Source of the DNA: Pseudoalteromonas tetraodonis
Lineage (GTDB): Bacteria > Pseudomonadota > Gammaproteobacteria > Enterobacterales > Alteromonadaceae
Direction of reading: 5' to 3'
DNA: 32,000 bases
NCBI RefSeq assembly: GCF_002310835.1
Contig: NZ_CP011042.1
Location: forward strand, 210,001 to 242,000
Below are positions 793-20,806 of this stretch, in pieces; the stretch's first letter is position 1, and every line of letters starts with the position of its first letter. The notes under the pieces are model-generated. The model ran no database searches and was not told the DNA's origin. It saw only the letters and a program-made list of their open reading frames with translations. The translations under genes and the position numbers were made by a program.

Positions 793-931
793 AATTAAAC
801 TGCTCGCATATTGCGTATTGTTATCGATAAAAACCTCCTCATATATTTTATAATTAACACTCAAAAACCCACGACCTTTGCTGTATGATAAGCCAATAAA
901 TTATATTGATATTCTTGCAAAGAGAGACCAC

Positions 932-2545: not shown

Positions 2546-4106
2546 AACTTTACCGGGTATGCCTAATATACCTAATGGCTGGTATTGGGCTCCTTTATCT
2601 GATTTATGTAAAAAAGTATCAGTTGGACATGTTGGAGAAACTAGTTCAGTTTTTTGTGGTCCGGAAGGTGTAACTTTTCTTAGATCTCAAAATGTCAGGC
2701 CAGGCCGGCTAGATTTGAATGATGTTAAATATGTAACTAAAGCATTTCATGAAAAAAGCAAAAAAAGCCAACTTAAAACAGGCGACATATTAGTTGTTAG
2801 GGTCGGACAAAATAGAGGCGATTGTGCAGTAGTTCCTGATAACGTAGGTGAAATTAACTGCGCAAATATTGTATTTGCCCAGCCAAAGGATATTCGATAT
2901 TCAGATTATTTAGGCTACTTCTTAAATTCAAGTTTTGGTCGAACTTCACTTTTAGCTGTAAGTACAGGCAGTGCCCAGGGAGTGTTAAATACAAAATCCG
3001 TAGCAAAAGTAGTAGTACCAGTCCCGCCAATTGATTTAGCAAAGAACATTGGGTATCGGCTTAAGCTAATCGATAACAAAATTGAACTTAACCAAAAAAC
3101 CAACCAAACCTTAGAACAAATGGCGCAGGCGTTATTTAAAAGCTGGTTTATTGATTTTGATCCGGTGTTCGACAACCTACTTGCGAGCGTTAATTTTAAC
3201 TTAGAAAACCTTGAAACTAGTCTGCCTGATGAGTTAAAACAAAAAGCACAGCGCCGCTTAGCGGCACTGAACAGCTTACACAATGCGGCCGAAGTAAAAA
3301 CCTCACTCAGTGCGCTCGCTCACGAATTACAAGCACTTTCAGCAACACAAGCAGCAGTGCAAGCCGCTGAAACACCCGTTAAAGCAAGCCTTAACGCCAA
3401 CCCTAAAATATTAGCGCAACACGCCAACACCCACGCCCACTTCCCCAATGAGTTCGAACACAACGAACAACTAGGCTGGATACCAAAGGGGTGGGGTGTA
3501 GGAGTAAGTGGAGATTTAGTAGATGTTAGGGATGGTACACATGATTCACCTAAGAAGTCCGAGAAAGGCTTTCCACTAGTTACTTCTAAACATATTACTT
3601 CAGGACGCTTAGATCTATCAGCAGCTTATTTAATCTCAGAGTTAGATTACAAAAAAGTCAATGAGCGCAGCAATGTTGAATATGGGGATATTTTGCTGAC
3701 CATGATAGGTACTGTCGGTGTTCCATACCTTGTGATGGATGAGCCCGCTAACTATGCAATTAAGAATGTAGGGCTTTTTAGAACATCACAAAATTTATAT
3801 TTGAAAAATTATCTACATATTTTACTAAAAACTGCTCATATGCAAGCTTACTTAAATGCAAGAGTTGCTGGCACCACTCAAAAGTACCTTTCGTTAAAAG
3901 TACTAAGAAATATAGATTTCCTATTACCTTCTAATATTGTTTTAGAGAAGTTTAATAGCATTGTAAATAATATGCTATTCAAAGAAAAATCAAATATTGA
4001 TCAAATTAATCAACTAACCAAGCTTCGTGACACTTTGCTACCCAAGCTCATCTCTGGCGAATTACAAATACCCGATGTAATCACAGATGAAGAAGTAGTC
4101 GATTAA
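2535..4106 (+). CDS. hsdS: Type I R-M specificity subunit HsdS (two TRDs, unusually long central spacer)
   Basis: Two target-recognition domains, each opening with IP(N/K)GW. A central conserved helix plus WFIDFDPV, and a C-terminal conserved helix LRDTLLPKLISGEL. ATG 2535 overlaps the hsdM stop (ATGGGGAGTAA). Confidence 0.9.
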   Translation: MGSKTLPGMPNIPNGWYWAPLSDLCKKVSVGHVGETSSVFCGPEGVTFLRSQNVRPGRLDLNDVKYVTKAFHEKSKKSQLKTGDILVVRVGQNRGDCAVVPDNVGEINCANIVFAQPKDIRYSDYLGYFLNSSFGRTSLLAVSTGSAQGVLNTKSVAKVVVPVPPIDLAKNIGYRLKLIDNKIELNQKTNQTLEQMAQALFKSWFIDFDPVFDNLLASVNFNLENLETSLPDELKQKAQRRLAALNSLHNAAEVKTSLSALAHELQALSATQAAVQAAETPVKASLNANPKILAQHANTHAHFPNEFEHNEQLGWIPKGWGVGVSGDLVDVRDGTHDSPKKSEKGFPLVTSKHITSGRLDLSAAYLISELDYKKVNERSNVEYGDILLTMIGTVGVPYLVMDEPANYAIKNVGLFRTSQNLYLKNYLHILLKTAHMQAYLNARVAGTTQKYLSLKVLRNIDFLLPSNIVLEKFNSIVNNMLFKEKSNIDQINQLTKLRDTLLPKLISGELQIPDVITDEEVVD

Positions 4107-4157
4107 TAACCTTAGCTGAGCGTTTAAAGGCCACAAAAACAAGAATAAGGATGTTTG

Positions 4158-7100
4158 ATGAAATTTACTGAAGCCAAATTAGAACAAGCGGTGGTTGAGC
4201 TATTAGGCGAGCAAGGCTACCCGCATTTATTGGGCGGTGAGCTCACCCGTAGTAACAGCGAAGTATTAATAAAAGAAGACCTCCGTGCTTTTTTAACCAA
4301 GCGCTACGCTAAAAATAATATTACCACCGGTGAAGTAGACTCAATAATTGCAAAGCTCGAAAAACTCCCTGCCAGTGATTTATACGAAAGTAATAAAACT
4401 TTTTGTAAGTGGCTAAGTGATGGATTCTTACTTAAACGGGAAGTACTTACACACGAGCGTGGCAGTTTAGCAGGGAGTAAATCACAAAAAGATTTGTATG
4501 TTCAGCTGCTTGATTACGACAACGTTGAGCAAGGCATTAAAAGTAGCCTAATAGCAGGCAGTGCTATGGCTGCTTTGGATAATGTGAATGAAGCCAGCGT
4601 TACTTACCTGCAAGACGATAATATTTATCGGTTTGTTACCCAGTTAGAAATAGAAAGCCCCACCAGTTACGACAATATTGAACTGCGTATTCCCGATGGC
4701 ATTTTATATGTGAATGGTTTACCACTAGTTGTGTTTGAATTTAAAAGCGCGATACGCGAGCAAGCCCCTATATTTGAAGCCTATGAGCAGTTAACGGTGC
4801 GCTACCGCCGCGCTATTCCGCAGTTATTTGTGTTTAATACCTTGTGCGTTATAAGCGATGGCGTAAACAATAAAATGGGTAACTTATTTGCGCCGTATCA
4901 GTTTTTTTACTCGTGGGGAAAAGTAACGGGACAAGAGCTAACCGCGCAAGAGGGGATTAACTCGTTACATACCTTATTGCAGGGCTTGTTTGATAAAGCG
5001 CGTTTGCGCGATGTTATGCGCAACTTTGTATTTTTTCCGGATTCTGATAATAAAAGCGCAGGCAAAAAAGAGATAAAAATTGTGCCGCGTTATCCGCAAT
5101 ATTATGCGGCTAATAAACTGTTCGAAAATATAAAACGCCACTTAAAGCCACAAGGCGATGGTAAAGGCGGTACGTATTTTGGCGCAACGGGTTGCGGTAA
5201 AAGTTACACCATGCAATTTTTAACACGTTTGTTGATGAAAAGCGTTGAACTTAAAAGCCCTACCATTATTTTAATTACCGACCGAACCGATTTAGACGAT
5301 CAGCTTTCGCAGCAGTTTGGCAATGCTAAAACCTACATTGGCGACGATACGGTAAAAACAGTGACCAGCCGTACTCACTTACGTGAGTTACTTGAAGGGC
5401 GTAACAGTGGTGGGGTATTTTTAACCACCATTCATAAATTTACCGAAGACACTCAGTTATTAACCGACCGCACTAACGTTATTTGTATTTCTGATGAGGC
5501 GCATCGTAGCCAAGTAAATCTTGATCAAAAAATTACCATTACCGAAAAAGGTGTAAAAAAGACCTTTGGTTTTGCTAAATACCTGCACGACTCATTACCA
5601 AACGCTACCTATGTTGGCTTTACCGGCACGCCAGTGGATGCGACTTTAGATGTGTTTGGTGAAGTGGTTGACTCGTACACCATGACTGAGTCGGTTAAAG
5701 ATGAAATAACCGTACGCATTGTGTACGAAGGCCGCGCCGCTAAGGTGTGTTTAAACAATAGCAAGCTGGCCGAAATTGAAGCTTATTACAAAGAATGTGC
5801 CGATGCAGGCAGTAACGAACTGCAAATAGAAGACAGTAAAAAAGCCACCGCTAATATGAATAGCATTTTAGGCGATCCTGACCGCATACGTGTATTAGCA
5901 AGGGACTTTGTTGAACATTACGAAAAACGCGTTGAGGAAGGTTCTACCATTGCAGGAAAGGCGATGTTTGTGTGTAGCTCGCGTGGCATTGCCTATCAGC
6001 TGTATCAAGAGTTAGAAGAATTACGCCCACAGTGGTTTGATGTAGTAGATACTGATGACGCGCAAACACTATCAGATACCGAGCGAAAGCGCGCTATTAG
6101 CGAGGGCCGTATTGCAGCCCCGTCTGAAAAAGTAAAAATGGTAATGACCCGTGGTAAAGATGACGTTGAACGCTTATATAATTTACTTGGCAGTAAAGAC
6201 GAACGTAAAGAGCTTGATAAGCAATTTAAAAACAAAAACTCAAACTTTAAAATAGCCATAGTGGTCGATATGTGGCTAACCGGTTTTGATGTGCCATTTT
6301 TAGATACCATGTACATAGATAAGCCATTGCAAAAGCACAGCTTAATACAAACTATTTCGCGGGTTAACCGCCAGTTTGAAGGCAAAGATAAAGGCTTAGT
6401 GGTTGACTACATTGGTATTAAATCTGAAATGAATAAAGCGTTAGCGCAGTATTCAAAAACTGACGAAACCAACTTTGAAGACATTACCGCCTCGGTTATT
6501 GAGGTAAAAAACCACTTGGCGTTACTTGCCGAGTTATTCCATAAATTTGACAGCAGCCCCTACTTTACAGGCGAAGCCGTTGCCCAGCTAAACTGTTTAA
6601 ACCACGCCGCCGAGTTTGCGCTAATTACCGAAAAACGGCAAAAGCGCTTTATGGATTTAGTTAAGCGTTTAAAAGCCGCTTACGATGTATGTTGCGGTAG
6701 TGAAAAAATAAACGAAAACGAGCGAAACCACATTCACTTTTACCTTGCCATTCGTTCTATTATTTACAAGTTAACCAAAGGCGAAGCGCCCGATACCGCG
6801 CAAATGAACGCCAAAGTACGTGAAATGATAAGTGAAGCCCTGCAAAGCGACGGCGTAAAAGAAGTATTTAAACTCGGTAATGAAGACGGCGGCGAAATTG
6901 ATATTTTTAATGACGACTACATCGCTAAAATAGAAAAAATAAAACTCCCCAACACCAAAATAAAAATACTGCAACAAATGCTAGCCAAAGCCATAGGTGA
7001 GCTTAAAAAAGTAAACCAAACCCAAGGTATCGACTTTACTAAACGCTTTGAATCGCTGGTACAGCGCTATAACGAGCGAAAAGAAGATGACGTACTGGTA

Positions 7101-7478
7101 AGTAGCGTACTTGATGAATTTTCAGACAGTATGGTTGATATGATTTACAGCGTACGCGACGAAATGAACGCCGGCGACGAGCTAGGCATTGATATTGAAG
7201 AAAAAGGCTTTTACGACGCCTTAAAAATGCTCGCCATTAAATACGACTTTGACTACCCCGAAGACAAGCTCATTGAGCTTGCTCAAGCAGTAAAAGTAAT
7301 TGTAGACGACAAAGTAAAATTTGTAGATTGGAACCACCGCGACGATATTAAATCAGCTTTAAAAGTAGAGCTGATTTTAATACTCGCTAAATTTAAATAC
7401 CCACCAATCAGCCGCGATGAAGTATACAAAGAAATATTTGAGCAAGCGCAAAATGTAAAAGCGAATAAAGAGGTGTAA
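4158..7478 (+). CDS. hsdR: Type I R-M restriction/translocase subunit HsdR
   Basis: About 1106 aa. N-terminal nuclease-type region (IPDGILYVNGLPLVVFEFKS), Walker A GATGCGKS (Lys codon 5199-5201), DEAH box at nt 5493-5504, FTGTP and QTISRVNR motifs. AAGGA lies upstream of ATG 4158. Confidence 0.95.
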   Translation: MKFTEAKLEQAVVELLGEQGYPHLLGGELTRSNSEVLIKEDLRAFLTKRYAKNNITTGEVDSIIAKLEKLPASDLYESNKTFCKWLSDGFLLKREVLTHERGSLAGSKSQKDLYVQLLDYDNVEQGIKSSLIAGSAMAALDNVNEASVTYLQDDNIYRFVTQLEIESPTSYDNIELRIPDGILYVNGLPLVVFEFKSAIREQAPIFEAYEQLTVRYRRAIPQLFVFNTLCVISDGVNNKMGNLFAPYQFFYSWGKVTGQELTAQEGINSLHTLLQGLFDKARLRDVMRNFVFFPDSDNKSAGKKEIKIVPRYPQYYAANKLFENIKRHLKPQGDGKGGTYFGATGCGKSYTMQFLTRLLMKSVELKSPTIILITDRTDLDDQLSQQFGNAKTYIGDDTVKTVTSRTHLRELLEGRNSGGVFLTTIHKFTEDTQLLTDRTNVICISDEAHRSQVNLDQKITITEKGVKKTFGFAKYLHDSLPNATYVGFTGTPVDATLDVFGEVVDSYTMTESVKDEITVRIVYEGRAAKVCLNNSKLAEIEAYYKECADAGSNELQIEDSKKATANMNSILGDPDRIRVLARDFVEHYEKRVEEGSTIAGKAMFVCSSRGIAYQLYQELEELRPQWFDVVDTDDAQTLSDTERKRAISEGRIAAPSEKVKMVMTRGKDDVERLYNLLGSKDERKELDKQFKNKNSNFKIAIVVDMWLTGFDVPFLDTMYIDKPLQKHSLIQTISRVNRQFEGKDKGLVVDYIGIKSEMNKALAQYSKTDETNFEDITASVIEVKNHLALLAELFHKFDSSPYFTGEAVAQLNCLNHAAEFALITEKRQKRFMDLVKRLKAAYDVCCGSEKINENERNHIHFYLAIRSIIYKLTKGEAPDTAQMNAKVREMISEALQSDGVKEVFKLGNEDGGEIDIFNDDYIAKIEKIKLPNTKIKILQQMLAKAIGELKKVNQTQGIDFTKRFESLVQRYNERKEDDVLVSSVLDEFSDSMVDMIYSVRDEMNAGDELGIDIEEKGFYDALKMLAIKYDFDYPEDKLIELAQAVKVIVDDKVKFVDWNHRDDIKSALKVELILILAKFKYPPISRDEVYKEIFEQAQNVKANKEV

Positions 7479-7577: not shown

Positions 7578-8837
7578 ATGACAATAATAAACTGGGGTCT
7601 ACTTGGCCCTGATAAACTTGAATCTGAACGACGCACTCGCACCTTGGGTCTTGCAGTTGCTGTACGTGCATTTAATGACTTGGCAGTACCTAATTTAGGT
7701 GGGGTAAAATTTAGTAAAAATGTTTTTTTAGCCTGTTTGGGCATTCATGTGGCTGAAAAAGTAAGATTAGAGGATAAGCAGGTAAGTAACATACAAGTTG
7801 CAAATGCAATTGAAGCGCTCGGCTGTATTTTGTCGTTTGAAAAAAATAATTGGCAGTCTGATGAAAGGTTAAGGGGAAACTCCAAGTTAGCAGGTGCAAA
7901 GGATTTATCATTTAAAGTAGTTGGCGCTAACAATTATTATGTAACACAGCCTATGCGTATGGCTACTGTGCAATTATTACCAGGACTTGGGTTAGTTGAA
8001 TCACAAGGAGAGCGATTTAATAGCTATAGTTTGAACGACAACGGATTGAAGTTAGTTATTGCCGGCTGCGCTGATTTAAAATGTTATAACAGTAGTATTG
8101 TTAATTTTTTAGTTAAGTGGGTGCTAGGTAATCATAGAAACCCTAGAGTAAGTGGTTTAATAAAGGCGCTAGCGCCTATTTATAGTTTAGCGGCAGACGC
8201 TAAAGCCATTTTAAAAGACCGTTTGGTTTCTGGTAATGATGAGTCTGCACTTCGAAGAAGAAATGCATTAACGTGGGTTAGTAATATAAATACAAACCCA
8301 TGTATTAATTGGCGAAAACCATCAGAATTAACAGACTTACATTTTAAAGACATAAAAAGTGGAGCTTACTTTTTCATACTCAGAGATAGTGTGATGATGT
8401 TATTAGACGCTATTGAAACCGCAGTTGCTAATGATAAGTCGGGGAGTTTAGATTTACGTAAAGGCACTCCTTTAGTTTTGCAAAACGCATTAACGAGAGT
8501 GAAGTCGGCTGCAACTAGTTTTGTTAATTTAAGCCATGATCCTACGCCTGATAAATTAGCGCTGAGTTTTGCACGTGAATGCTTACAAAGTCAGGATGAA
8601 TTAATTATTTTAAGTATTGTTGAAAGAGATAATTTAGTACTTAAAGTAAGAGATAAAGCTGTTATTAAAGGATCTGCTTTTGGTGGAGTGCAGCAAGAAG
8701 CTAACGACGCTGGCGAAACAGAAAGCTTGTTTCCAAAAGGCGTTTCATTTCGTTTTTGGAACTTGTATTTACTGAATGTTGACTTCGATGGGCAGCTCGA
8801 TATGTGGCTAAATAAAAAGGAGAAAGCAGATGAGTAA
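7578..8837 (+). CDS. Hypothetical protein, 419 aa, first gene of the PLD/SNF2 module; no recognisable domain
   Basis: Long ORF with an AAGAAGG SD-like sequence before ATG 7578. Its stop overlaps the next start (ATGAGTAA). I recognise no catalytic or TM motifs. Confidence 0.7.
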   Translation: MTIINWGLLGPDKLESERRTRTLGLAVAVRAFNDLAVPNLGGVKFSKNVFLACLGIHVAEKVRLEDKQVSNIQVANAIEALGCILSFEKNNWQSDERLRGNSKLAGAKDLSFKVVGANNYYVTQPMRMATVQLLPGLGLVESQGERFNSYSLNDNGLKLVIAGCADLKCYNSSIVNFLVKWVLGNHRNPRVSGLIKALAPIYSLAADAKAILKDRLVSGNDESALRRRNALTWVSNINTNPCINWRKPSELTDLHFKDIKSGAYFFILRDSVMMLLDAIETAVANDKSGSLDLRKGTPLVLQNALTRVKSAATSFVNLSHDPTPDKLALSFARECLQSQDELIILSIVERDNLVLKVRDKAVIKGSAFGGVQQEANDAGETESLFPKGVSFRFWNLYLLNVDFDGQLDMWLNKKEKADE

Positions 8838-10797
8838 CTCATTACCACTTTCTTTATCGGCTTATTTTGTGCCACCGACAGATTGTATTGGTGAATTTGG
8901 CTTGTTGACTGGATATTCGGCAGATACTCACTTTTTTAATGATGCACTTGATAAGTTTACGCAAACAATTAAATCACAAAGAGCCTATGAAGGAAGTGGT
9001 TATTTAGCCATGATGTTAGACCCAAACCATCACCAGATATCTGCGGTTGACTGCCCTGGGTTGGTTCATTTACCAGCTAAATCTAATATAGAAAAAAAGT
9101 TTAGATTGTTACATGCTAAAGTAGCGTTATTACTATTTAAAAATAAGCTAACAGAGCAAAAAATTATTAGGGTTATTGTTTCTACGGGGAATTGGACACG
9201 CCAAACAATAGAAGACAGTTTAGATATGGTTTGGTCGATTGATTATGAAGTAGCCTATAGTGATGATCATCAAGTGCAAACTGATATTGCCAAGGTGTAT
9301 GATTTTATCAATCACACTTTAACTTTTTTTAATATCGATATATTAAATAGCGTAAGAATAGAAAATAAAGCAACAGCAACAGCGCTAAGGTTTAAACACT
9401 ATCAACATGTTTTAGGTGAAATTAAGCCAGTAAAAAATGTACAACCTCGCTTTTTTGATAATACAAAGCAGGCACTCATCACACAGTTACCACATTTAAT
9501 AAAAACACATAGTAATAATACAAAGTGCAATTATTTAGCCCTTGGTTCTGGTTTTTATGAAGGTGGAGATAATAAGAGCAAAGTGCCAAAAGTGATTTCT
9601 GAGATTGAAAAAGTATTACAGCAGGCTGGTCTCTTAACTAAAACAGCTGAAAAAGATATTTATGTCAACCCTGATAATTGTCAACTAGTCGCTCAAACTT
9701 TAGATATATTAAATACAAATGATTGGTCAGTTAGGCCTGCTTACGATGCTGTTTATCAAAGTAAAAATTATCAAAGATCATTGCATGCAAAGTTTATTTT
9801 TTCAGCCAAAAATGGAAATGACGATAGCTGCAAAAGCTCATGGTTGTATTTAGGATCAGGAAATTTAACAACGCCTGGCTTTTTAAGTAAAGCAAGTTTG
9901 CATGGCGGTAACCTAGAAGCGGGAGTTGTGTTTTCTCCAAAAGAATTGAGTTGGTATGGCGAAGATGACTCAACTAATTGCATTAGTGATAAATTGCCTA
10001 TTAATTGGGATGAAGAAAGTATTATTACAGATGCTACGCAGTTGTGCTCAGGGAAGGGGATGCCAGAACTTGAAGGTGAATTTGTAGCTGCACCGATAAG
10101 TTATTTTACTATTTGTAGCTTAACTAAGACAGGTTGCTTATTACGACCTGATACTGATGATACAAAAGGCTATCAAGTTTGGTACGCTGAAAATTATGCG
10201 TGTGAGTGTAAAGGTGAAAATATAATTTGGCCCGATAATACTCCAAGGCAAGTGAAAGTTACGTGGAATATTAAAGATGCGACGCACAGCATTTATATAC
10301 CTGTATTCGATGAGTTTGGACGAATGGCAGCAACCGCTTTGCCTGAGTTAGAGATAGATGACGCATGGAACTTACTAGGCGCATTCCCTACTTTGCCCGC
10401 AGAGGACGGTTTCGATGGCGAGGTGCTAGATGAAAGCCATTCAGTGGCATTAAATTGTCAGCATGAGGCATCAGGTTCTAATTATTATTTAAATAAAATG
10501 ATGTTATTGATTGAACATGTAGCACAAAAACAAACAGAACTTGATCCATTCAACTGGGAACAGTGGTGTTATCGTTTAGAACAAATATTTTGTCAAATGA
10601 GTAAGTCAGCAGTAATTTCTTACTTTAAAGAAATTAATATTAATCCATTATCCCCTTTATGGGCTGCCCCTTTTAGACCTCATTTTGCAGAAGATTCAAG
10701 TACTGAGCAAGGTCGTTTATATGAGTCATTATTAAGAAAAATTGAACATAGTTTGGAATTGAATCAGTTAATAACGCTTGGAGGCAAAGGTGAGTAA
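8830..10797 (+). CDS. PLD-superfamily (two HKD motifs) phosphodiesterase/nuclease with an uncharacterised C-terminal half
   Basis: Motif 1 is LLHAKV...VSTGNWT (His codon 9112-9114). Motif 2 is SLHAKFIF...LGSGNLT (His codon 9784-9786). SD AAGGAG at 8817-8822. Overlaps both neighbouring genes. Confidence 0.8.
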   Translation: MSNSLPLSLSAYFVPPTDCIGEFGLLTGYSADTHFFNDALDKFTQTIKSQRAYEGSGYLAMMLDPNHHQISAVDCPGLVHLPAKSNIEKKFRLLHAKVALLLFKNKLTEQKIIRVIVSTGNWTRQTIEDSLDMVWSIDYEVAYSDDHQVQTDIAKVYDFINHTLTFFNIDILNSVRIENKATATALRFKHYQHVLGEIKPVKNVQPRFFDNTKQALITQLPHLIKTHSNNTKCNYLALGSGFYEGGDNKSKVPKVISEIEKVLQQAGLLTKTAEKDIYVNPDNCQLVAQTLDILNTNDWSVRPAYDAVYQSKNYQRSLHAKFIFSAKNGNDDSCKSSWLYLGSGNLTTPGFLSKASLHGGNLEAGVVFSPKELSWYGEDDSTNCISDKLPINWDEESIITDATQLCSGKGMPELEGEFVAAPISYFTICSLTKTGCLLRPDTDDTKGYQVWYAENYACECKGENIIWPDNTPRQVKVTWNIKDATHSIYIPVFDEFGRMAATALPELEIDDAWNLLGAFPTLPAEDGFDGEVLDESHSVALNCQHEASGSNYYLNKMMLLIEHVAQKQTELDPFNWEQWCYRLEQIFCQMSKSAVISYFKEININPLSPLWAAPFRPHFAEDSSTEQGRLYESLLRKIEHSLELNQLITLGGKGE

Positions 10798-13366
10798 TTT
10801 TTTAGGTTGGGAAAAGGTTGCTGAAATAATAAAAGATACTCTCGGATTCAATGAGCGTCTGAACTCAACCCAAAAAGAAAGTGTAAATGCGATACTAGAT
10901 AGGATAGCTGACACGGGAGTAATTATTGCTGATGAAGTTGGCATGGGTAAAACACGAATAGCAGTTGAGCTTATCCATGCTGTTAAACAAGCAGGTGGTC
11001 GTGCAGCCATTATTGTGCCCACAACATTAGGATTCCAATGGCAAAAAGAGCTTAATGATCGCGAAGCAGATTTAGCGCCTCAGCACACAGTAAATAGTCT
11101 CTGGCGTTTTATGTCTGCTTGGGCTGATTGTGACAAGCAAGAGCATTGGGATAAACAGTCGGTTATTTTATTATCTCAAAATTTTGCGAATTGGCGTATT
11201 GGTGGTAATTCTCATTCAAGTCGTTGGGCACTGCTACCAGAAGTGTATGCACAGTGGCGAAAAGCTAAAAATAACAGGTTACCTAATGGTTACAATAGCC
11301 ATGAAGACCTAAAATATATGGATGCTAAATATTGCGCACGTAGAATTGTTGAACAAACATATTACCTATCGAATAATGATCCTAGAAAGAAAATTTTAAA
11401 TTGCATCATTGAAAACTTTGAATGGGGTGTAAATTCATTTGGCGGGGATAATTTTTCTGCTGGAAGTGAATACCGAGATTTGTTAGAAAAAACGGTAGGT
11501 TTAGGACTCGGTTCATTTGACTTAGTTGTTATAGATGAAGCACATAAAAGCCGAGGTGAAAGCAGTAGCTTAAGCCGAATTTTGAATGAAATTATTATTC
11601 AAAATGATAATGGTCGCCGGTTAGCTATGACGGCTACACCTGTTGAGTTAAATGTTGAGCAATGGCAACAAATGCTCAATAGAATTGAGTTATCCGAATC
11701 TGATCAGCAGCCTATTTTAAAGAGTGTTGATAACTATGCTAAAGCTGTTGCTAAACTCAAGTTATATTGGAAGGTCGATGAGCAATCTCGGTTGAGTTTT
11801 CAGCGGGCCGCTAGAGCGTTTGAAAACTCGTTAAAACCTTATTTATTAAGAAGAGATAAGCGACAAGACCCAACAATTCAAAAATTTCACTCTGTTTCAA
11901 ATTTACCAATTAATGAATATAGGAAGCATACCCAGGTTGAAATTAAAGTAGAAGAACTATCAGAGCAGTGGAAGCAAATAGTGTGCTCTGTTGAAGGGCT
12001 ATCTGCTGCTTCAATTATGCAAGATGCGACTTCAAAAAGAGCACGACTTACGCTAGCTAATGGTCACGGGATTGCTGGAATTATAGATAACTCAGCTTAT
12101 TCATCCCCTCAAGGTGACGATGACGAGCTAGAAAATGATTTGAACAATGATGATAGTAAAAAGCTTCAACGGGCTCACTGGTGGAAAAAACAGATTACTG
12201 AGGTATATGCAAGTGGAGATGAATCGTTATATCAACATCCTGCATTATTAAAAGTTATTTCAGAAATTGAAAATAATTTAATGTTGGGTCAAAAAGCATT
12301 AGTGTTTGGTAAGTTGACCAAGCCTATGAGGATATTAGTTAATTTATTAAATGCAAGAGAAATGCTACGCAGGCTAGATAAAAACGAGTTTTGGCCTCAA
12401 ACTAAAATTCATATCAGTGATAAAGAAAATGATGACTCTGAAGTGCATGCGGCCAAATTTGCGTCAAAGCAACTTGGTTTAAATTGGAGTATTAATGAAA
12501 TAAATGATCGTTTAAAACGTCAATATGAAAAGCATGCAAACCAAGTGGACCAAACTAAACAACACCTGATTGAAAATATTGAACACTCAATCTCTTTATT
12601 GGATACACGTTGTGAACAGCTCTTCAAAGCATTTAAAAAATCTGTTGAACAAGCCTGCTCAGAGGAACATTCTGTTCTTACTTTTATGACTCGTGCTATT
12701 TATGAGTTATCAGATTCAAGCGATTTTAATTTAACATCTGAAGAGGTTGCTCAGGGTTTTATTGATCTAATGGGTGCAGTCACAGCAGAGAATGAAGGTG
12801 ATGCCGATGGTGATGGTCAATTAGATGAAAAAGAAGCAAGCAAGCTTTGGCCCTGTATAGAAGCAAGGGTAAAAGAAGAGTATGAACATGTTAGAGGTGG
12901 CATGGCGCGCTTAATGTATGGGAATACATCAGCGGCAAGTCGTCGTATGTTACAGTTGGGTTTTAATCGTAAGAACAGTTTTCCTAATGTGTTAGTTGCA
13001 CAGTCAGTAGTTGGACGAGAAGGGTTAAATTTACATCAAGCTTGTCGGTTCGTATATTTATTGCACCCAGAGTGGAATCCTGGCGTTGTTGAGCAACAAA
13101 TAGGTCGTGTTGATAGGCTCGGATCTCGTTGGGAGAAAGAGTTTTCCGAGCAACAAGAGCAAGGAGGAGAGCTTCCGTTTATTGAAATTAAGCAGGTTAT
13201 ATTTAAGGGAACTTATGACGAATATAATTGGCAGGTATTGCATGCGCGCTGGGATCAACTTCGCTCACAATTACATGGAGTTGTCATCCCTATAAGTGAA
13301 CGAGATGATGCGTTTTCACATTATTATGATGAATTATGCTTAGCTGCACCGGATTTTACTCCTTAA
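10790..13366 (+). CDS. SNF2-family (SF2) helicase/translocase
   Basis: Motif I DEVGMGKT (Lys codon 10949-10951), motif II DEAH (11534-11545), MTATPVE, GREGLNLH and QQIGRVDRLGS. GTG 10790 follows GGAGG (10780-10784) and overlaps the PLD stop (GTGAGTAA). The track's TTG 10778 is the alternative start. Confidence 0.9.
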   Translation: MSNFLGWEKVAEIIKDTLGFNERLNSTQKESVNAILDRIADTGVIIADEVGMGKTRIAVELIHAVKQAGGRAAIIVPTTLGFQWQKELNDREADLAPQHTVNSLWRFMSAWADCDKQEHWDKQSVILLSQNFANWRIGGNSHSSRWALLPEVYAQWRKAKNNRLPNGYNSHEDLKYMDAKYCARRIVEQTYYLSNNDPRKKILNCIIENFEWGVNSFGGDNFSAGSEYRDLLEKTVGLGLGSFDLVVIDEAHKSRGESSSLSRILNEIIIQNDNGRRLAMTATPVELNVEQWQQMLNRIELSESDQQPILKSVDNYAKAVAKLKLYWKVDEQSRLSFQRAARAFENSLKPYLLRRDKRQDPTIQKFHSVSNLPINEYRKHTQVEIKVEELSEQWKQIVCSVEGLSAASIMQDATSKRARLTLANGHGIAGIIDNSAYSSPQGDDDELENDLNNDDSKKLQRAHWWKKQITEVYASGDESLYQHPALLKVISEIENNLMLGQKALVFGKLTKPMRILVNLLNAREMLRRLDKNEFWPQTKIHISDKENDDSEVHAAKFASKQLGLNWSINEINDRLKRQYEKHANQVDQTKQHLIENIEHSISLLDTRCEQLFKAFKKSVEQACSEEHSVLTFMTRAIYELSDSSDFNLTSEEVAQGFIDLMGAVTAENEGDADGDGQLDEKEASKLWPCIEARVKEEYEHVRGGMARLMYGNTSAASRRMLQLGFNRKNSFPNVLVAQSVVGREGLNLHQACRFVYLLHPEWNPGVVEQQIGRVDRLGSRWEKEFSEQQEQGGELPFIEIKQVIFKGTYDEYNWQVLHARWDQLRSQLHGVVIPISERDDAFSHYYDELCLAAPDFTP

Positions 13367-14371: not shown

Positions 14372-14392
14372 GTGCGTCAATTTTTGACGCAC
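14372..14392. promoter_or_regulatory. Perfect palindrome GTGCGTCAA-TTT-TTGACGCAC between the WYL gene and the FtsZ-like gene; candidate operator (or weak terminator)
   Basis: 9-bp arms read from the sequence. It contains TTGACG and lies just upstream of a possible extended -10 (TGtTATGCT, 14398-14406). Only a poor T-tract follows. Confidence 0.35.
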
Positions 14393-14429
14393 CTATTTGT
14401 TATGCTCCTTTAAAAGTTAAGGAGTGGTT

Positions 14430-15527
14430 ATGTTTCAATTAATTCAGCAAAATGATGGTTTATCGATTGGTGTATTTGGCATTGGTGGGTGTGGCTGTAA
14501 TACGCTTAACAGTATTTTTGAACAACGCGAGTCTGAGCAGGCGCACTTATACAGCGTTAATACCGACAAAGTAGTGCTTGAGCATACACAGAGTGATGAA
14601 GCAGTACTGATAGGTGCAGAGCTCACTCATGGGTATGGTGCAGGAGCCGACCCTAAAGTTGGGCTGCAAGCGGCAGAAGAGAGTAAAGAGCAGCTTTTAA
14701 CGCTTATTAATGGCTGCGATATAATTTTGTGTGCAACAGGGTTGGGTGGCGGTACTGGGACTGGCGCTAGCCCGTATATTGCAGAGCTTGCTAGTGAGCA
14801 AGGTAAGCCCATTATATTTGTTGCTACACTGCCATTTAGTAGTGAAGGACAGTTTAGAAATAATATAGCGCAAGCAGGTTTAAATGAGCTTAAAGAGCAT
14901 GCTAATGCGGTTATTACGCTCCCTAACGATCAACTTATTGAAGTGCTTGGTAACGATATAGGATTATTCGATGCGTTTAAGCACTCAAACCAAATACTCC
15001 ACTCACTGATAAAATCACTCATCGATATGCTTTGTTTTCAAGGGCTTATAAATGTTGATTTAAACGATTTTGCTAAAATTATGGATTGCCAGGGTGATGC
15101 AGTCCTAGGTGTTGGTAAATGCGATGAAGAAAGCGAGCTTACTACTGCATTGGATAGTGCACTCAATAACCCACTTGTTAATCAAGTTGATATGTCATCA
15201 AGTACGGGTGTAATAATACAAGTAAATTGCAAAGATGAAATTTCACTCGGTAGTTATAACCTCATTACCGATACAGTGCGCCAGCGGGTCAGCCCAAACG
15301 CGTTAGTTATTTGTGGTGTTTCTAAAATTGAAAATTTAGCAATGAATTATGAACTGTTGATCATTGCAACCGGTGCAAGCGCTAAGATGATTGTTGAACC
15401 TTTCGATAATGCGCCTAGTAGCGAAGTCGAACAATCGCCAGCTGCAAGAGCTAAACCTCAAGCTTCTGATATTTTTGACATACCAGCGTTTATACGTAAT
15501 CAAGCACCAGCTCCTTGTGGAAAATAA
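14430..15527 (+). CDS. Divergent FtsZ paralogue (tubulin/FtsZ GTPase) retaining the C-terminal FtsA/ZipA-binding peptide
   Basis: GIGGCGCN, VNTD, GYGAGADPKVG, GLGGGTGTG (14739-14765), LPFSSEG, LPNDQL, T7 loop NVDLND (15051-15068) and terminal DIFDIPAFIRNQA (15468-15506). SD AAGGAG at 14419-14424, 5 nt before ATG 14430. No dcw-cluster neighbours. Confidence 0.9.
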   Translation: MFQLIQQNDGLSIGVFGIGGCGCNTLNSIFEQRESEQAHLYSVNTDKVVLEHTQSDEAVLIGAELTHGYGAGADPKVGLQAAEESKEQLLTLINGCDIILCATGLGGGTGTGASPYIAELASEQGKPIIFVATLPFSSEGQFRNNIAQAGLNELKEHANAVITLPNDQLIEVLGNDIGLFDAFKHSNQILHSLIKSLIDMLCFQGLINVDLNDFAKIMDCQGDAVLGVGKCDEESELTTALDSALNNPLVNQVDMSSSTGVIIQVNCKDEISLGSYNLITDTVRQRVSPNALVICGVSKIENLAMNYELLIIATGASAKMIVEPFDNAPSSEVEQSPAARAKPQASDIFDIPAFIRNQAPAPCGK

Positions 15528-15577: not shown

Positions 15578-15904
15578 ATGAATGTATATTTAGATGATGA
15601 AAGAGAAACACCAGCCGGTTGGTTAAGAGCCTATTGGCCTAGTGAAGTGATTAAACTTTTGAAGACTGGTAAAGTAAAGCTGCTTAGCCTTGACCATGAT
15701 TTAGGGAATGATAATAAAGGCACTGGCTATGACGTTTTACTTTGGATTGAGCAGGCAGTGTTTATTGATGGCTTTGTACCGCCAACAATAGCCGTTCACT
15801 CAGCCAATAGCTCAGCACGAATTAAAATGGAACGCGCAATTACACAAATTAATTTACTGGCTAAAAATCAAAAGGGTTCTAAACGCTGTGATGGCGAGTG
15901 GTGA
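15578..15904 (+). CDS. Small receiver (REC/flavodoxin-like) fold protein with YLDDER...SLDHDLG...VHSAN motifs (cREC-like family)
   Basis: 108-aa ORF. The motif pattern matches a family of about 100-aa proteins that I recall being annotated as cyclic-phosphate-processing receiver domain, common in phages and conflict loci. The assignment is from memory only. Confidence 0.6.
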   Translation: MNVYLDDERETPAGWLRAYWPSEVIKLLKTGKVKLLSLDHDLGNDNKGTGYDVLLWIEQAVFIDGFVPPTIAVHSANSSARIKMERAITQINLLAKNQKGSKRCDGEW

Positions 15905-15931
15905 GCTTTGCAAGTAAACAGGAATATTTTT

Positions 15932-16651
15932 ATGAATACGTTATACATTACAGGAGCTGGTGTGAGTGCTGCTAGTGGTATTCCAACTTTTCGTGGTGAG
16001 GATGGCTTTTGGACTATTGGTAGTAAAAACTATACGCCAATGGAAATGGCGACACGTGCAATGTATGAAAATAACCCGAGTGAGTTTTTAGCTTGGTATT
16101 ATCATCGTTTTGCAACTTATCGTAATCATGGTCCTAATGAAGTGCATCATTGGCTTAGTGATAAAAACTTAATTACCCAAAATATTGATGGGCTAGATGG
16201 TAAGGCGGGTAATAAAAATTACATTGCGATTCATGGTCGGCTTGATCAAATGACGCTGTTTCATCATCAGGGCGATGATGTCACACCAGAAGCTACGCTA
16301 TGGAGTAATGTTGATGAGAGCAACTTACATCGCTCTCTACTTGCGTTATTCAATATTGAAAACCATCAGCCAAAGCTTAATCATTCTTTAAAGCCCTTTG
16401 TGTTGTTATTTGATGAATATTACACCGAGCTATACCGCATTACTGAAGCGCAATCGCGAATGATTGCGGCCGATAAAATGGTGTTTATGGGTACTTCGTT
16501 CAGCGTTAATATTACTCAAATGGCGCTCGAGATTGCGCGAAGTTACAGTATTCCTATTGAAATTGTTGACCCCGACCCTGCTCATGTATTGCACTCAAAT
16601 GTAAGCTATAAAAAAATGACTGCGTTGGAGTACATACAGCAACAAGGTTAA
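15932..16651 (+). CDS. SIR2/sirtuin-family NAD+-dependent enzyme lacking the Zn-ribbon cysteines
   Basis: GAGVSAASGIPTFRG Rossmann/NAD motif, QNIDGL, and catalytic His in IAIHG (codon 16232-16234). There is no Cys anywhere in the segment where sirtuins carry CxxC...CxxC. ATG 15932 with ACAGGA upstream is preferred over the track's TTG 15908. Confidence 0.9.
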   Translation: MNTLYITGAGVSAASGIPTFRGEDGFWTIGSKNYTPMEMATRAMYENNPSEFLAWYYHRFATYRNHGPNEVHHWLSDKNLITQNIDGLDGKAGNKNYIAIHGRLDQMTLFHHQGDDVTPEATLWSNVDESNLHRSLLALFNIENHQPKLNHSLKPFVLLFDEYYTELYRITEAQSRMIAADKMVFMGTSFSVNITQMALEIARSYSIPIEIVDPDPAHVLHSNVSYKKMTALEYIQQQG

Positions 16652-17878: not shown

Positions 17879-20806
17879 ATGACCGCTCATCGGATAACCC
17901 ACGCTGTACATCACTCTCTTCCACTTTTTATTAAATCAACGCTGTGCATCTCTATTTTATCTGTGATTAATCATGCATATGCTGATGAAGCAGAAGATAA
18001 AACATTAAAAAGCAAAGATATGGAAGTCATTGAGGTGCGTGGTATTCGTTCCAGTATGGCGGCTAATTTAGATATAAAGCGTTTATCGAGCTCTGTGGTT
18101 GATGCCATAACAGCAGAAGATATTGGTAAGTTCCCTGATAAAAATGTCGCAGATTCATTACAACGCGTACCAGGGGTAGTGATTGACCGTGACGGAGGCG
18201 AGGGCTCATCGGTAAGTATTAGGGGGTTATCATCTGAGCTAACCTTTTCTCAGCTAAATGGTAATTTTATTGCGTCATCACCAGGTGAGCCATCTCGTTC
18301 GTTTGATTATGCATTACTGCCCTCAGCCATGATTGAAAGCGTGGAAGTGTATAAATCACCAGAGGCACGTTTAGATGAAGGTGGCGTGGGCGGCACGGTA
18401 TTAATGCATAGTCGTAAGCCGCTAAGTATGGATGCAAACTCAGGGGTGATTAATATTGAAAGCACTTATGCCGATGTGACTGAAGAGTCTGAGCCCCAAG
18501 TAACCGCACTTTATTCTTGGAAGAATGAGGCTGATACTTTTGGTGTGTTGTTTGGTTACACCTCACAAAAACGCACTAACCGAACTCTCTCAGGAGGCAC
18601 AGATGCAAACGTATGGCGCTTTGCCGGTGATAACCCGATAGATACCAATGGCGAGCTGGTTGATAATAATAATCAGTGGGGCTCAATAAGTGATGCTCAG
18701 GGTAATAGTTATGACGATGTTTGGTTTCCTCAAGTGGTTCGTGGCTCAATTGTAAACGAATTACGTGAGCGAGAAGGGGTGCAATTTAGCACGCAGTGGC
18801 GCCCAACCAGCCGTGTTAAAATTGGCTTTAACTATTTTGGATTTTCACTTGATAAAAATAGAACTGAGTCGGTGATTGATATACCTGAATGGTCTTTAAA
18901 TCCTGACTTTTTAACCGATGTAAGTTTGGATGAGTCGGGCACTATTATCAATGGGATGCAATTTGATGCAGCTGCGAGTGGCGCAGAGAATGATATGCAA
19001 CTGCCGTGGATGCGAGGCTCTTATGTGCGTGAAGAGTCGACCTCAGACACTTTTGATTTTAATTTAACCTATGAAGGCGATTATTTTAAAGCCCGTTTTG
19101 TGGCGGGCAATACGCGCTCTGAAGGCGGGCCAAAGGAGAGTTGGGAAGCGGCGTATAAAAGTTCAAACGCCGGTGAAAATGAAAGCCGTATAGAAAATGC
19201 ATCGCAAACAGCGGGTTGGCAAATTAATGAAAACGATATTAGTTTAAATATAGACCCTAATACGCTAGCTAACTTACTAAATGGTGTGGGCGGTGGGCGC
19301 GATCCAGGCTCGTCAAATTCAAGCTTTGTACGCAGTGAACTCGAAGAAGATTACTATCAAGCTGACTTTGATATTTATACCGATTGGGGAATTTTAAGAA
19401 CAATTAAAACAGGGGTTAAGTACCGAGAAGCTACGCTGCATCGCGAAACCGGTAATACCTTCTTTTTAGATCCTAATTTTGATATTGCTGCAGCAGAAGC
19501 CAGCGAGTGAGGGATCACACGTTTTGACAGTTATCAGTGGAACAACGGTATGCCACTAGCACAAGACGTGTTTATTAACGAAGGTAACATTGCGGGTGGT
19601 TTTAATATTAACCAAATGCCCGGTATTGATTGGCAAAAATACCGCGATATTGTGACCAGTCATTATGTGCCGTATACACGCAAAGAAGATAACTTTATTT
19701 ATGATATTGAAGAGCAAATAGCGGCGTTTTATCTGCAAGGTGATTTTGAGTTTAATAGCGTGCGAGGTAATTTAGGGGTGCGGGTGGTACGCACTAAAAC
19801 CATGACATCATCAACCGACCTATATACTTATTTATTAGATCATACCAATGATGACAGCGGCGAGCCGGTAACCGGAGATGATCGATTTGTTGAAGACTAT
19901 CAACTTATTACTCAAGAGAGTACCGATACTCAAATTCTTCCTAGCTTTAATATTGCATGGGATATAAGTGATGATGTAGTGGTACGAGGCGCGGTTGCTA
20001 AAGTGATGTCACGACCTGATTATGCCGATTTAGGCGCACAACAACGCATTACGTTTGTCTCAGATGAGTGGGCAGACGATAGAGCTGAGTTTAATGAAAT
20101 TCCGGGTTTTAGTGGCAGTGGCGGTAATAAAAACTTAAAGCCATTTGAGTCGGTGCAAGCTGATTTATCTATTGAATATTATTACAGCGAAGGCTCTGCC
20201 ATTGGTTTAGCACTGTTTCATAAAACAGTTGATAATTTTGTTGTTCCCTTAGTTATTGACGTACAGCAAGATTTTGCTGGTAAAGAGGGCATAGTTGAGG
20301 CAGGAAATATTACTGTATCGCCATATAGCACAGTAGGTAATGGCACTGATGCCGTATCTAAAGGGGCGGAAGTATTTATACAGCATGCCTTTGATAGTGG
20401 TTTTGGTTTTTATGCAAACTACACTTATAACAAAACCAATAAAGCCGATGTAAGTGTAAATGGTGAAGAATTTGGCCAATCACCATTAATAGGCAGTGCT
20501 AAGTATCAATACAATACCTCGATATATTATGAGGGAGATGCCTTTAATGTTCGTGCTTCTTATAATAAACGCGGTGAAACCGTGTTGGGTTTAAACAGCG
20601 GCTTAAATGTATACCAAGACCCATACGAGCAAGTTGATGTAAATGCTTCGATTAATTTATTAGAGGATTTGAGTTTGACCGCTGCAGTTATTAATTTGAC
20701 TAAATCTGAGTCGGTAAAGCGCCTAGGTAATGATACAGAGTCTCGGTTATTAAACTCAAGCTATTCGGGAAGACGTTATTATGCGGGCATAAACTACCGT
20801 TTTTAA
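17879..20806 (+). pseudogene. TonB-dependent outer-membrane receptor interrupted by a single in-frame TGA (19508-19510)
   Basis: The track ORFs 17879-19510 (signal peptide plus plug: DAITAEDIGKFPDKNVADSLQRVPGV) and 19550-20806 (barrel ending ...YYAGINYRF) are in the same frame. Codons 19511-19549 contain no further stop. Confidence 0.8.

Follow-up and report, generated by a model that had tools for sequence, protein, structure and literature searches.

What is a second FtsZ doing at a locus that holds none of the genes of the dcw division cluster, and what would turn it on? The question is raised by a stretch of 32,000 nucleotides (nt) of Pseudoalteromonas tetraodonis DNA (assembly GCF_002310835.1, contig NZ_CP011042.1, positions 210,001 to 242,000 of the forward strand; the whole stretch is called the window hereafter, and positions are counted from its first letter), in which a gene for a 365-amino-acid (aa) FtsZ paralogue lies directly behind a gene for a WYL regulator of the DriD type. 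FtsZ is the organiser of bacterial division and a target of antibiotics. Because this second, non-dcw FtsZ is paired with a DriD-like regulator and a site of the DriD type is found in its promoter, the locus suggests a stress-inducible switch on cell division that has so far not been described. The three parts are known, namely FtsZ, the DriD-type regulator and the DriD-type operator, and what is new is their combination. The most informative feature of the locus is the DriD-like regulator with its operator, which had been overlooked in an initial annotation made from the sequence alone; that annotation had proposed a divisome-directed effector or a molecular decoy, and the former is the reading preferred here as plausible.

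In the list of open reading frames (ORFs) the frame of the paralogue begins with GTG (14424-15527, + strand). The start has been placed at the ATG at 14430 because the homologues all begin with MFQL or MFEL and because an AAGGAG ribosome-binding site occupies 14419-14424. The protein matches Tubulin (PF00091, 7.9e-41) and FtsZ_C (PF12327, 3.9e-14) in Pfam, both above the gathering score, and the FtsZ chains of the PDB at about 2e-63 with phmmer, similarities that chance cannot account for. An AlphaFold2 model built from 69 family sequences reached a predicted local distance difference test score (pLDDT) of 81.7 overall and above 90 in the core, with residues 320-361 below 50 and thus predicted to be disordered. 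Superposition of this model on the FtsZ of E. coli and of B. subtilis gave target-normalised template modelling (TM) scores of 0.93-0.94 and root-mean-square deviations of 1.7-2.0 Å (0.87-0.94 for the TM score when M. jannaschii FtsZ is included), and the 50 best Foldseek matches in the PDB are all FtsZ. Every FtsZ motif named in the initial annotation was located by script, and the coordinates given there were confirmed (Table 1), and the T7 loop NVDLND has its counterpart in E. coli NVDFAD. The tail of the protein, DIFDIPAFIRNQA, aligns column for column with the E. coli C-terminal peptide, which we take to be DYLDIPAFLRKQAD. In FtsZ this peptide is the docking site for FtsA, ZipA, MinC, SlmA and ClpX. 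Pfam, fold and alignment thus agree with the annotation: the gene encodes a true paralogue of FtsZ that retains every GTP-binding and T7 residue and whose disordered linker leads to a C-terminal peptide of the FtsZ type. The remark made there that the core has diverged is borne out by an identity of 34-35% to E. coli FtsZ. The paralogue is predicted to be a functional FtsZ-type GTPase able to form filaments.

The paralogue belongs to a discrete clade of Alteromonadales and Vibrio, for which the name CC-FtsZ is coined here and which is defined by a T1 loop with two cysteines (GxGGCGCN) together with the FtsZ-type C-terminal peptide. All of the 120 best database relatives share the loop G[VI]GGCGCN, which reads GVGGGGGN in E. 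coli, and a C-terminal D-I-P-[AST]-Φ-x-R peptide is found in 119 of 120 family clusters. Members have been found in Pseudoalteromonas, Colwellia, Thalassotalea, Moritella, Agarivorans and Vibrio chaetopteri. In the family alignments C21 is invariant and C23 at least 90% conserved. The columns of GTP contact and of the T7 loop are invariant across 69 members, apart from the first two Gly of GGGTGTG (at least 90%), and in 14/15-sequence alignments that include E. coli FtsZ they are fully invariant, GGGTGTG among them. The linker measures 17-64 residues, with a median of 39. An exhaustive search of 1.84 billion representatives placed the closest single-domain relatives at or above about 260 bits and two further representatives of the GGCG type at 231-235 bits, and ordinary FtsZ, with thousands of sequences, formed a plateau from about 220 bits downward. 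A search of genome contigs with the family alignment was dominated by matches to the generic GGGTGTG motif, with one family locus, L014, among the matches listed (loci of the survey are numbered with the prefix L).

Could this gene simply be the housekeeping ftsZ of the organism, displaced out of the dcw cluster? Its PGAP label is indeed "cell division protein FtsZ", and all the hallmarks of FtsZ are present in it. However, it scores 281.5 bits against the NCBIfam ftsZ equivalog TIGR00065, below the cut-off of 295.2, and the clade stands apart from generic FtsZ both by the bit-score gap and in a neighbour-joining tree (calculated without bootstrap), where it falls outside generic FtsZ, that of E. 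coli included. The gene is found on secondary replicons and in variable contexts, and it evolves fast within the genus (55-96% identity). The absence of dcw neighbours remarked on in the initial annotation has been confirmed: none of ftsQ, ftsA and lpxC occurs in the window, and a dcw cluster accompanies the gene in none of about 20 independent family contexts. Moreover, P. luteoviolacea has been reported to possess a canonical FtsZ of 418 aa whose gene has no Cys codon (PMC6913975). It is therefore very unlikely that CC-FtsZ, judged from these comparisons, is the housekeeping division protein rather than a paralogue of it.

The clade is under strong purifying selection, the pairwise ratio of nonsynonymous to synonymous substitution rates (dN/dS) being 0.06-0.15. 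When the window gene is compared with alleles of 70% identity (L004, L215), the proportions of nonsynonymous and synonymous differences (pN and pS) are 0.18 and 0.81-0.83 in the core, 0.07 and 0.54-0.69 in the C-terminal peptide, and 0.58 versus 0.63 and 0.59 versus 0.44 in the linker. A constrained core and peptide joined by a free linker is the pattern of canonical FtsZ, and on this basis catalysis, assembly and docking of the peptide are argued to be all in use. With the closer alleles L001 and L214 the pattern is less clear-cut. Between 14430-15527 of the window and 10001-11098 of L001 the synonymous divergence drops from 0.72 in the core to 0.05 in the linker; it appears that alleles have swapped the 3' end of the gene by recombination, and L001 looks like a mosaic.

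The second component of the locus is the 324-aa regulator. It matches the WYL family of PADLOC (6.1e-10) and WCX of Pfam (0.003, below the gathering score), and its orthologues are named "WYL domain-containing protein" by PGAP; a database protein of P. tetraodonis is 100% identical to it. A profile search for diverse WYL homologues returned mostly sequences more than 80% identical. A profile of nine diverse members of the regulator family found its best PDB matches in Caulobacter DriD (chains 7u02/7tzv/9cu3/9pfq/8tp8, 6e-6 to 2e-5), with PafBC far behind. The AlphaFold2 model of the regulator, built on a shallow alignment, has a pLDDT of 41, and only its N-terminal helix-turn-helix-like part reaches 70-80. 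Nearly all Pseudoalteromonas-type loci with an upstream flank have the WYL gene ahead of the paralogue in the same orientation, at a distance of 62-81 bp (12 bp in L208, according to our ORF call). Other arrangements exist in the clade. In Colwellia hornerae, Thalassotalea and the P0093 lineage the WYL gene is found downstream of the paralogue and convergent with it, and a homologue of this convergent type is 28% identical to the window regulator over its full length (E 1e-33); in one clade the gene is divergent, and in the P0028 lineage it is tandem. The WYL neighbour is absent in P. piratica, Moritella, Agarivorans, V. chaetopteri and most Colwellia (the "bio" type, in which the paralogue stands by the bio operon). 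In the WYL-linked lineages the regulator gene is taken to be a dedicated partner of CC-FtsZ.

Between the two genes of the window a perfect 9+9 inverted repeat, GTGCGTCAA-TTT-TTGACGCAC, occupies positions 14372-14392 and is unique within the window. Its arms are invariant, and its spacer variable, across Pseudoalteromonas loci whose proteins share only 63-70% identity, and in the Colwellia and Thalassotalea lineages CGAC-N7-GTCG stands at the equivalent place. Of the 32 loci with a visible WYL gene, 30 have the general form CGWC-N7-GWCG within the 260 nt that precede the paralogue, as do 11 more loci of the same clades whose contigs end short of the WYL position; the motif is absent from 48 loci without a WYL gene in the available flank, mostly of the bio type, and from the four genomes that lack the regulator. 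The relaxed core has a background of 0.12 per kb. In the loci surveyed the operator has been found solely at the promoters of the paralogue and of the regulator, a second copy preceding the convergent WYL genes.

The geometry of the promoter is equally constant and holds across the different gene orders. A hexamer of the TAnnnT type (e.g., TATGCT, TATAAT, TACACT, and TACAAT) starts exactly 11 nt past the operator core in 33 of 36 complete copies, while the intervening bases vary between clades; the three exceptions include the distal second copies of L166 and L175, and one further copy was truncated and was not counted. Two further lineages carry TAACCT (L219) and CATACT (L218). No -35 hexamer was recognised in the promoter of the paralogue, and the fixed spacing therefore puts the operator over the -35 position. 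The DriD site, ATACGAC-N7-GTCGTAT, likewise keeps a constant distance to the -10 element and extends over the position where a -35 element is lacking (PMC13004042). Since the architecture of the operator is that of DriD and its geometry is fixed, the coupling between regulator and target, i.e., control of the transcription of the paralogue by the predicted WYL operator, is well supported by the sequence comparisons. That the palindrome does no more than terminate the WYL gene was considered and rejected as the main reading, as the motif always recurs 11 nt before the hexamer where no gene ends upstream and also precedes convergent WYL genes.

How would such a pair work? DriD is activated by single-stranded DNA (ssDNA) (PMC13004042), and WYL regulators have been reported to drive the division inhibitors didA (DriD) and aciT (Acinetobacter) after DNA damage (PMC9186387, PMC4211646, PMC13010146). 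Judging from DriD, PafBC and the WYL activator of Acinetobacter, ssDNA is the probable trigger of the CC-FtsZ regulator too; such DNA would arise from DNA damage, phage replication or the replication of mobile elements. The regulator would then bind CGWC-N7-GWCG, which stands where a -35 element is expected and ends 11 nt before the -10 hexamer, and turn on the paralogue gene. Since the product shares the C-terminal docking peptide of FtsZ, it would be drawn to FtsA, ZipA and the other partners of this peptide, where it would co-assemble with the resident Z ring or compete against it; the outcome would most likely be a pause or a re-programming of division until the stress is over. The sequence analysis shows the FtsZ fold and motifs, the conserved peptide, the purifying selection, the pairing of the genes, and the operator with its fixed place in the promoter; from these we infer the ssDNA signal, activation instead of repression, binding to FtsA or ZipA, and the effect on division. 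In P. piratica the gene directly upstream of the paralogue on the same strand (L007, 7366-7917) encodes 183 aa that combine a transmembrane segment with a SPOR domain, which binds septal peptidoglycan; it is counted as a precedent and supports a reading related to the divisome. Taken as a whole, a stress-induced paralogue under DriD-like WYL control that acts at the divisome through its C-terminal peptide, likely as a brake on division, is given an even chance of being correct.

If it is correct, a whole clade that keeps both the catalytic machinery and the docking peptide of FtsZ would be wired to a family of regulators that sense ssDNA and control division inhibitors. This would be a concrete link between the sensing of DNA damage or infection and the Z ring, with operator, -10 element, regulator and target all defined at base resolution, and the WYL-FtsZ module is small enough to be transferred into E. 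coli.

Several observations weigh against this scheme. Its main weakness is that a pure brake needs no intact catalytic T7 loop. FtsZ mutants defective in T7 are the stronger poisons. The full conservation of T7 thus speaks for a working filament no less than for an inhibitor. Both the WYL gene and the operator are missing from about a third of the clade, so that function does not strictly require the regulator. An operator placed over the -35 element would suit a repressor in the style of BrxR/CapW no less than an activator, the likeness between the regulator and DriD in sequence is limited to the WYL-WCX part, and terminator scoring also picks up the palindrome as a hairpin, if a weak one.

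Because a brake does not require the intact catalytic loop, a spare FtsZ resistant to inhibitors has to be regarded as a serious rival, one to which a modest likelihood is given. Here the paralogue, induced by stress, would be a fully competent division protein and would build or sustain the Z ring when inhibitors of the SulA type or from phages block FtsZ. The surfaces bound by such inhibitors could differ, given a core that shares no more than 34-35% of its residues with the FtsZ of enterobacteria, and the retention of assembly and catalytic features and of the anchor peptide under purifying selection, the FtsZ fold, the anti-phage genes next to the gene and the stable, core-like locus of Colwellia would all be expected of a spare copy. 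Nevertheless, regulators of the WYL/DriD type drive division arrest, not rescue, and it seems contradictory that damage should induce arrest and its bypass together; apart from the single SPOR neighbour, no anchor or divisome gene is co-conserved with the paralogue. The same defence neighbourhood has inspired two other readings. One of them, possible if doubtful, is an inducible cytoskeletal effector that travels with defence islands, in which the DriD-like sensor, on meeting ssDNA from phages, mobile elements or damage, would call up a second FtsZ that hijacks the FtsA/ZipA sites and freezes or re-routes the division of the infected cell, or baits phage proteins directed at FtsZ; if true, a full-length FtsZ would here serve as an immune or checkpoint output of a new class. 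The other is the immune decoy or guard, i.e., a mimic of FtsZ that binds FtsZ-targeting phage proteins and either absorbs them or triggers a neighbouring effector. In at least eight Pseudoalteromonas contexts the paralogue lies directly downstream of swapping defence cargo, it retains the docking peptide of FtsZ, and some strains have cREC and SIR2 genes behind it; comparative genomics has linked cREC, WYL and sirtuins in systems of NAD+ and RNA-end conflict (PMC7824862, PMC9503650). Yet no effector is conserved alongside, SIR2 being a flank and cREC sporadic, the paralogue has no match in PADLOC, the operator is confined to the promoters of the paralogue and the regulator, and the Colwellia orthologues stand by the bio operon, outside defence islands. 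The decoy half of the original proposal has thus found little support, and we consider it rather unlikely.

Finally, a filament for the segregation or positioning of a secondary chromosome or a mobile island, in the manner of TubZ or PhuZ, would account for the location on secondary replicons in six complete Pseudoalteromonas genomes, in P. piratica and on a P. haloplanktis contig, and for the tyrosine recombinases beside the pair in several loci. The fold argues otherwise: the 50 best matches contain no TubZ, and the sole "Tubulin-like protein" chain of the PDB, 7evh, is matched at 7.7e-5 as compared with about 2e-63 for FtsZ, in agreement with the contrast that the initial annotation drew with the segregation tubulins. 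Moreover, a membrane-anchor peptide is present, neither a TubR-like adaptor nor centromere repeats were seen and no adaptor-like neighbour is conserved at the loci, the gene is also found on the 3.67-Mb chromosome of strain Xi13 and by the Colwellia bio operon, and no family member occurs in the phage and viral collections searched (viral contigs and GenBank phages). This explanation is held to be quite unlikely, and the stress-induced action at the divisome remains the preferred one.

Comparison with known systems indicates where the new element departs from them. Like canonical FtsZ (E. coli; TIGR00065), CC-FtsZ has the two-domain fold, the GTP loops, the T7 loop, the disordered linker and the same type of C-terminal peptide; unlike it, CC-FtsZ carries GGCGCN in place of GGGGGN and a shorter linker, falls below the equivalog cut-off, has its own WYL regulator, is never part of a dcw cluster in the contexts examined, and is found on secondary replicons or beside defence genes. 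SulA of the SOS response and the prophage proteins Kil and DicB are small proteins that bind FtsZ, MinC or ZipA. They resemble CC-FtsZ as products linked to stress or to mobile elements that are expected to act on the Z ring, and differ from it in that CC-FtsZ is itself an intact FtsZ. Other extra FtsZ copies encoded outside dcw clusters, FtsZm of Magnetospirillum and FtsZ1/FtsZ3 of Agrobacterium/Sinorhizobium, have specialised roles and are not known to carry the linker and the C-terminal peptide, whereas CC-FtsZ keeps the peptide and has a dedicated regulator. To our knowledge, extra copies of FtsZ that keep the peptide have not been described in Gammaproteobacteria, and a gammaproteobacterial paralogue with the docking peptide is thus new. 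WYL regulators of the BrxR/CapW type flank defence islands. The regulator of the window likewise borders a defence cluster; its operator, in contrast, lies in the promoter of the paralogue and not before defence genes, its best structural relatives are DriD proteins, and the WYL-FtsZ pair is also found without defence neighbours. The closest parallels are DriD-DidA of Caulobacter and the WYL regulator of AciT in Acinetobacter, which share with the present pair a WYL/WCX regulator (DriD being the closest one solved) and a target related to division and, in the case of DriD, an operator of the CGAC-N7-GTCG type over the -35 position at a fixed distance from the -10 element. Here, unlike there, the target is a full-length FtsZ paralogue instead of a small membrane inhibitor, and the predicted regulon consists of the paralogue plus, in convergent arrangements, the regulator itself, DriD having been reported to be without self-regulation (PMC13004042). 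TubZ/PhuZ and the FtsZl-1/FtsZl-2 families (PMC2875224) are also tubulin-superfamily genes outside the division cluster, and differ in that CC-FtsZ groups with FtsZ proper by sequence and fold and has not been found on phages; the description of FtsZl-1 and FtsZl-2 names no paralogue from Alteromonadales or Vibrio (PMC2875224). In the literature searched, neither the CC-FtsZ clade nor any FtsZ under WYL control has been described.

Table 1. Positions of genes, signals and protein motifs in the window around the CC-FtsZ gene.
Feature	Position	Strand	Evidence
Type I restriction-modification genes hsdM/S/R	878-7478	+	Pfam, PADLOC
Unknown protein (419 aa), PLD-like protein (655 aa), SNF2 helicase (862 aa)	7578-13366	+	Pfam, PADLOC
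DriD-like WYL/WCX transcription regulator, 324 aa	13382-14356	+	PADLOC, Pfam, PGAP, DriD profile match
Predicted operator core CGTC-AATTTTT-GACG	14375-14389	.	Within palindrome 14372-14392; DriD-box architecture
-10-like hexamer TATGCT	14401-14406	+	11 nt after operator core
Ribosome-binding site AAGGAG	14419-14424	+	5 nt ahead of ATG, direct reading
CC-FtsZ, 365-aa FtsZ paralogue of the GGCGCN clade	14430-15527	+	Pfam, PDB matches, AlphaFold2/Foldseek
T1 (G-box) loop GIGGCGCN, clade signature	14478-14501	+	Scripted motif location, alignment
VNTD	14556-14567	+	Scripted motif location
GYGAGADPKVG	14631-14663	+	Scripted motif location
Tubulin signature GLGGGTGTG (T4)	14739-14765	+	Scripted motif location, family alignments
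LPFSSEG	14829-14849	+	Scripted motif location
LPNDQL	14919-14936	+	Scripted motif location
T7 synergy loop NVDLND (N208, D210, D213)	15051-15068	+	Script; counterpart NVDFAD in E. coli
Disordered linker of rapid evolution (about aa 320-346)	15387-15467	+	pLDDT <50, pN/pS
FtsZ-type conserved C-terminal peptide DIFDIPAFIRNQA	15468-15506	+	Script, alignment, pN/pS
cREC (cyclic-phosphate-processing receiver) gene	15578-15904	+	Pfam cREC_REC 3.9e-26
SIR2-family gene, conserved chromosomal flank	15908-16651	+	Pfam SIR2

The surroundings of the pair were surveyed in the same set of about 20 independent genomic contexts and in 94 family loci from a metagenome scan. In the window all genes between 878 and 20806 lie on the + strand, and ordinary genes follow from 16807 on. 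The paralogue matches none of the families of PADLOC-DB 2.0, whereas the WYL, restriction-modification and SNF2/PLD-like neighbours do. The cargo upstream of the WYL gene varies by genome, comprising type I restriction-modification with PLD/SNF2, GmrSD, DarTG with an AAA ATPase, McrBC with a CRISPR-associated ring nuclease, HipA, or another type I restriction-modification system; in Pseudoalteromonas the WYL-FtsZ pair therefore marks the border of a hypervariable hotspot of defence genes, which this pair anchors. The view that the gene is island-encoded holds only in part: defence genes do adjoin it, but it belongs to a conserved clade, the WYL-FtsZ unit is widespread at the border of the hotspot, and the locus is stable in Colwellia. 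In most Colwellia the order bioBFCD, an opposite-strand HicB-like gene, the paralogue and an 83-aa zinc-ribbon gene is syntenic, and a description of the gene as strictly island cargo was rejected on these grounds. The Colwellia loci of the bio type among L094-L211 (e.g., L104 and L147) have neither the WYL gene nor the operator, and a different mode of control is likely there. Regarding replicons, the paralogue is found on secondary replicons of 680-900 kb in the six complete Pseudoalteromonas genomes mentioned above, on a 1.6-Mb replicon in P. piratica and on a 627-kb contig in P. haloplanktis; that it is always on chromosome II was rejected in view of strain Xi13.

The genes that follow the paralogue are less constant. 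The cREC gene, which stands alone between the paralogue and SIR2, is found only in some loci and strains. The SIR2 product of the window is 81% identical to a Kelch-adjacent Sir2 located 7 kb from the pair in L004/L215, and SIR2 is therefore considered to be a conserved flank and not a partner. SIR2 was rejected as a functional partner of the paralogue, and cREC, being sporadic, is not a conserved one. A functional tie between cREC and the WYL regulator may still exist, since papers on comparative genomics connect cREC with WYL and sirtuin genes (see above).

The block at 7578-13366 recurs in L001-L003, gives partial PADLOC matches to ZacB, PDC-M27C, ZacC and DrmD, and is a candidate for an uncharacterised defence system. 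Tyrosine recombinase genes stand beside the pair in L214 (15131-16693), L218 (1-2577, three in a row) and L009 (7967-9679), and also in L135/L197/L208; some copies of the WYL-FtsZ pair may be mobile within integrative elements. Further downstream in the window, one in-frame TGA (19508-19510) breaks the reading frame of a gene for a TonB-dependent receptor (17879-20806). The metagenome locus L160 (7205-10132) holds an intact orthologue of 975 aa that is 97.6% identical and keeps the same frame over its whole length, and the TGA is likely a nonsense mutation or a sequencing error.

Other FtsZ-like genes were met in the course of the survey. Vibrio hepatarius carries a different FtsZ paralogue outside a dcw cluster (L018, 9971-11080), which is 36% identical to the window protein and has the T1 loop GVGGGGTN and the degenerate tail SVPAFLTKESA; extra FtsZ genes in Vibrionaceae and Alteromonadales may be commoner than has been assumed. 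In addition, the metagenome loci L154 (7122-11349), L164 (11658-13596) and L204 contain two to four tandem FtsZ-like genes, whose T1 loops fit the same DNA pattern and whose products score about 160 bits on the family model.

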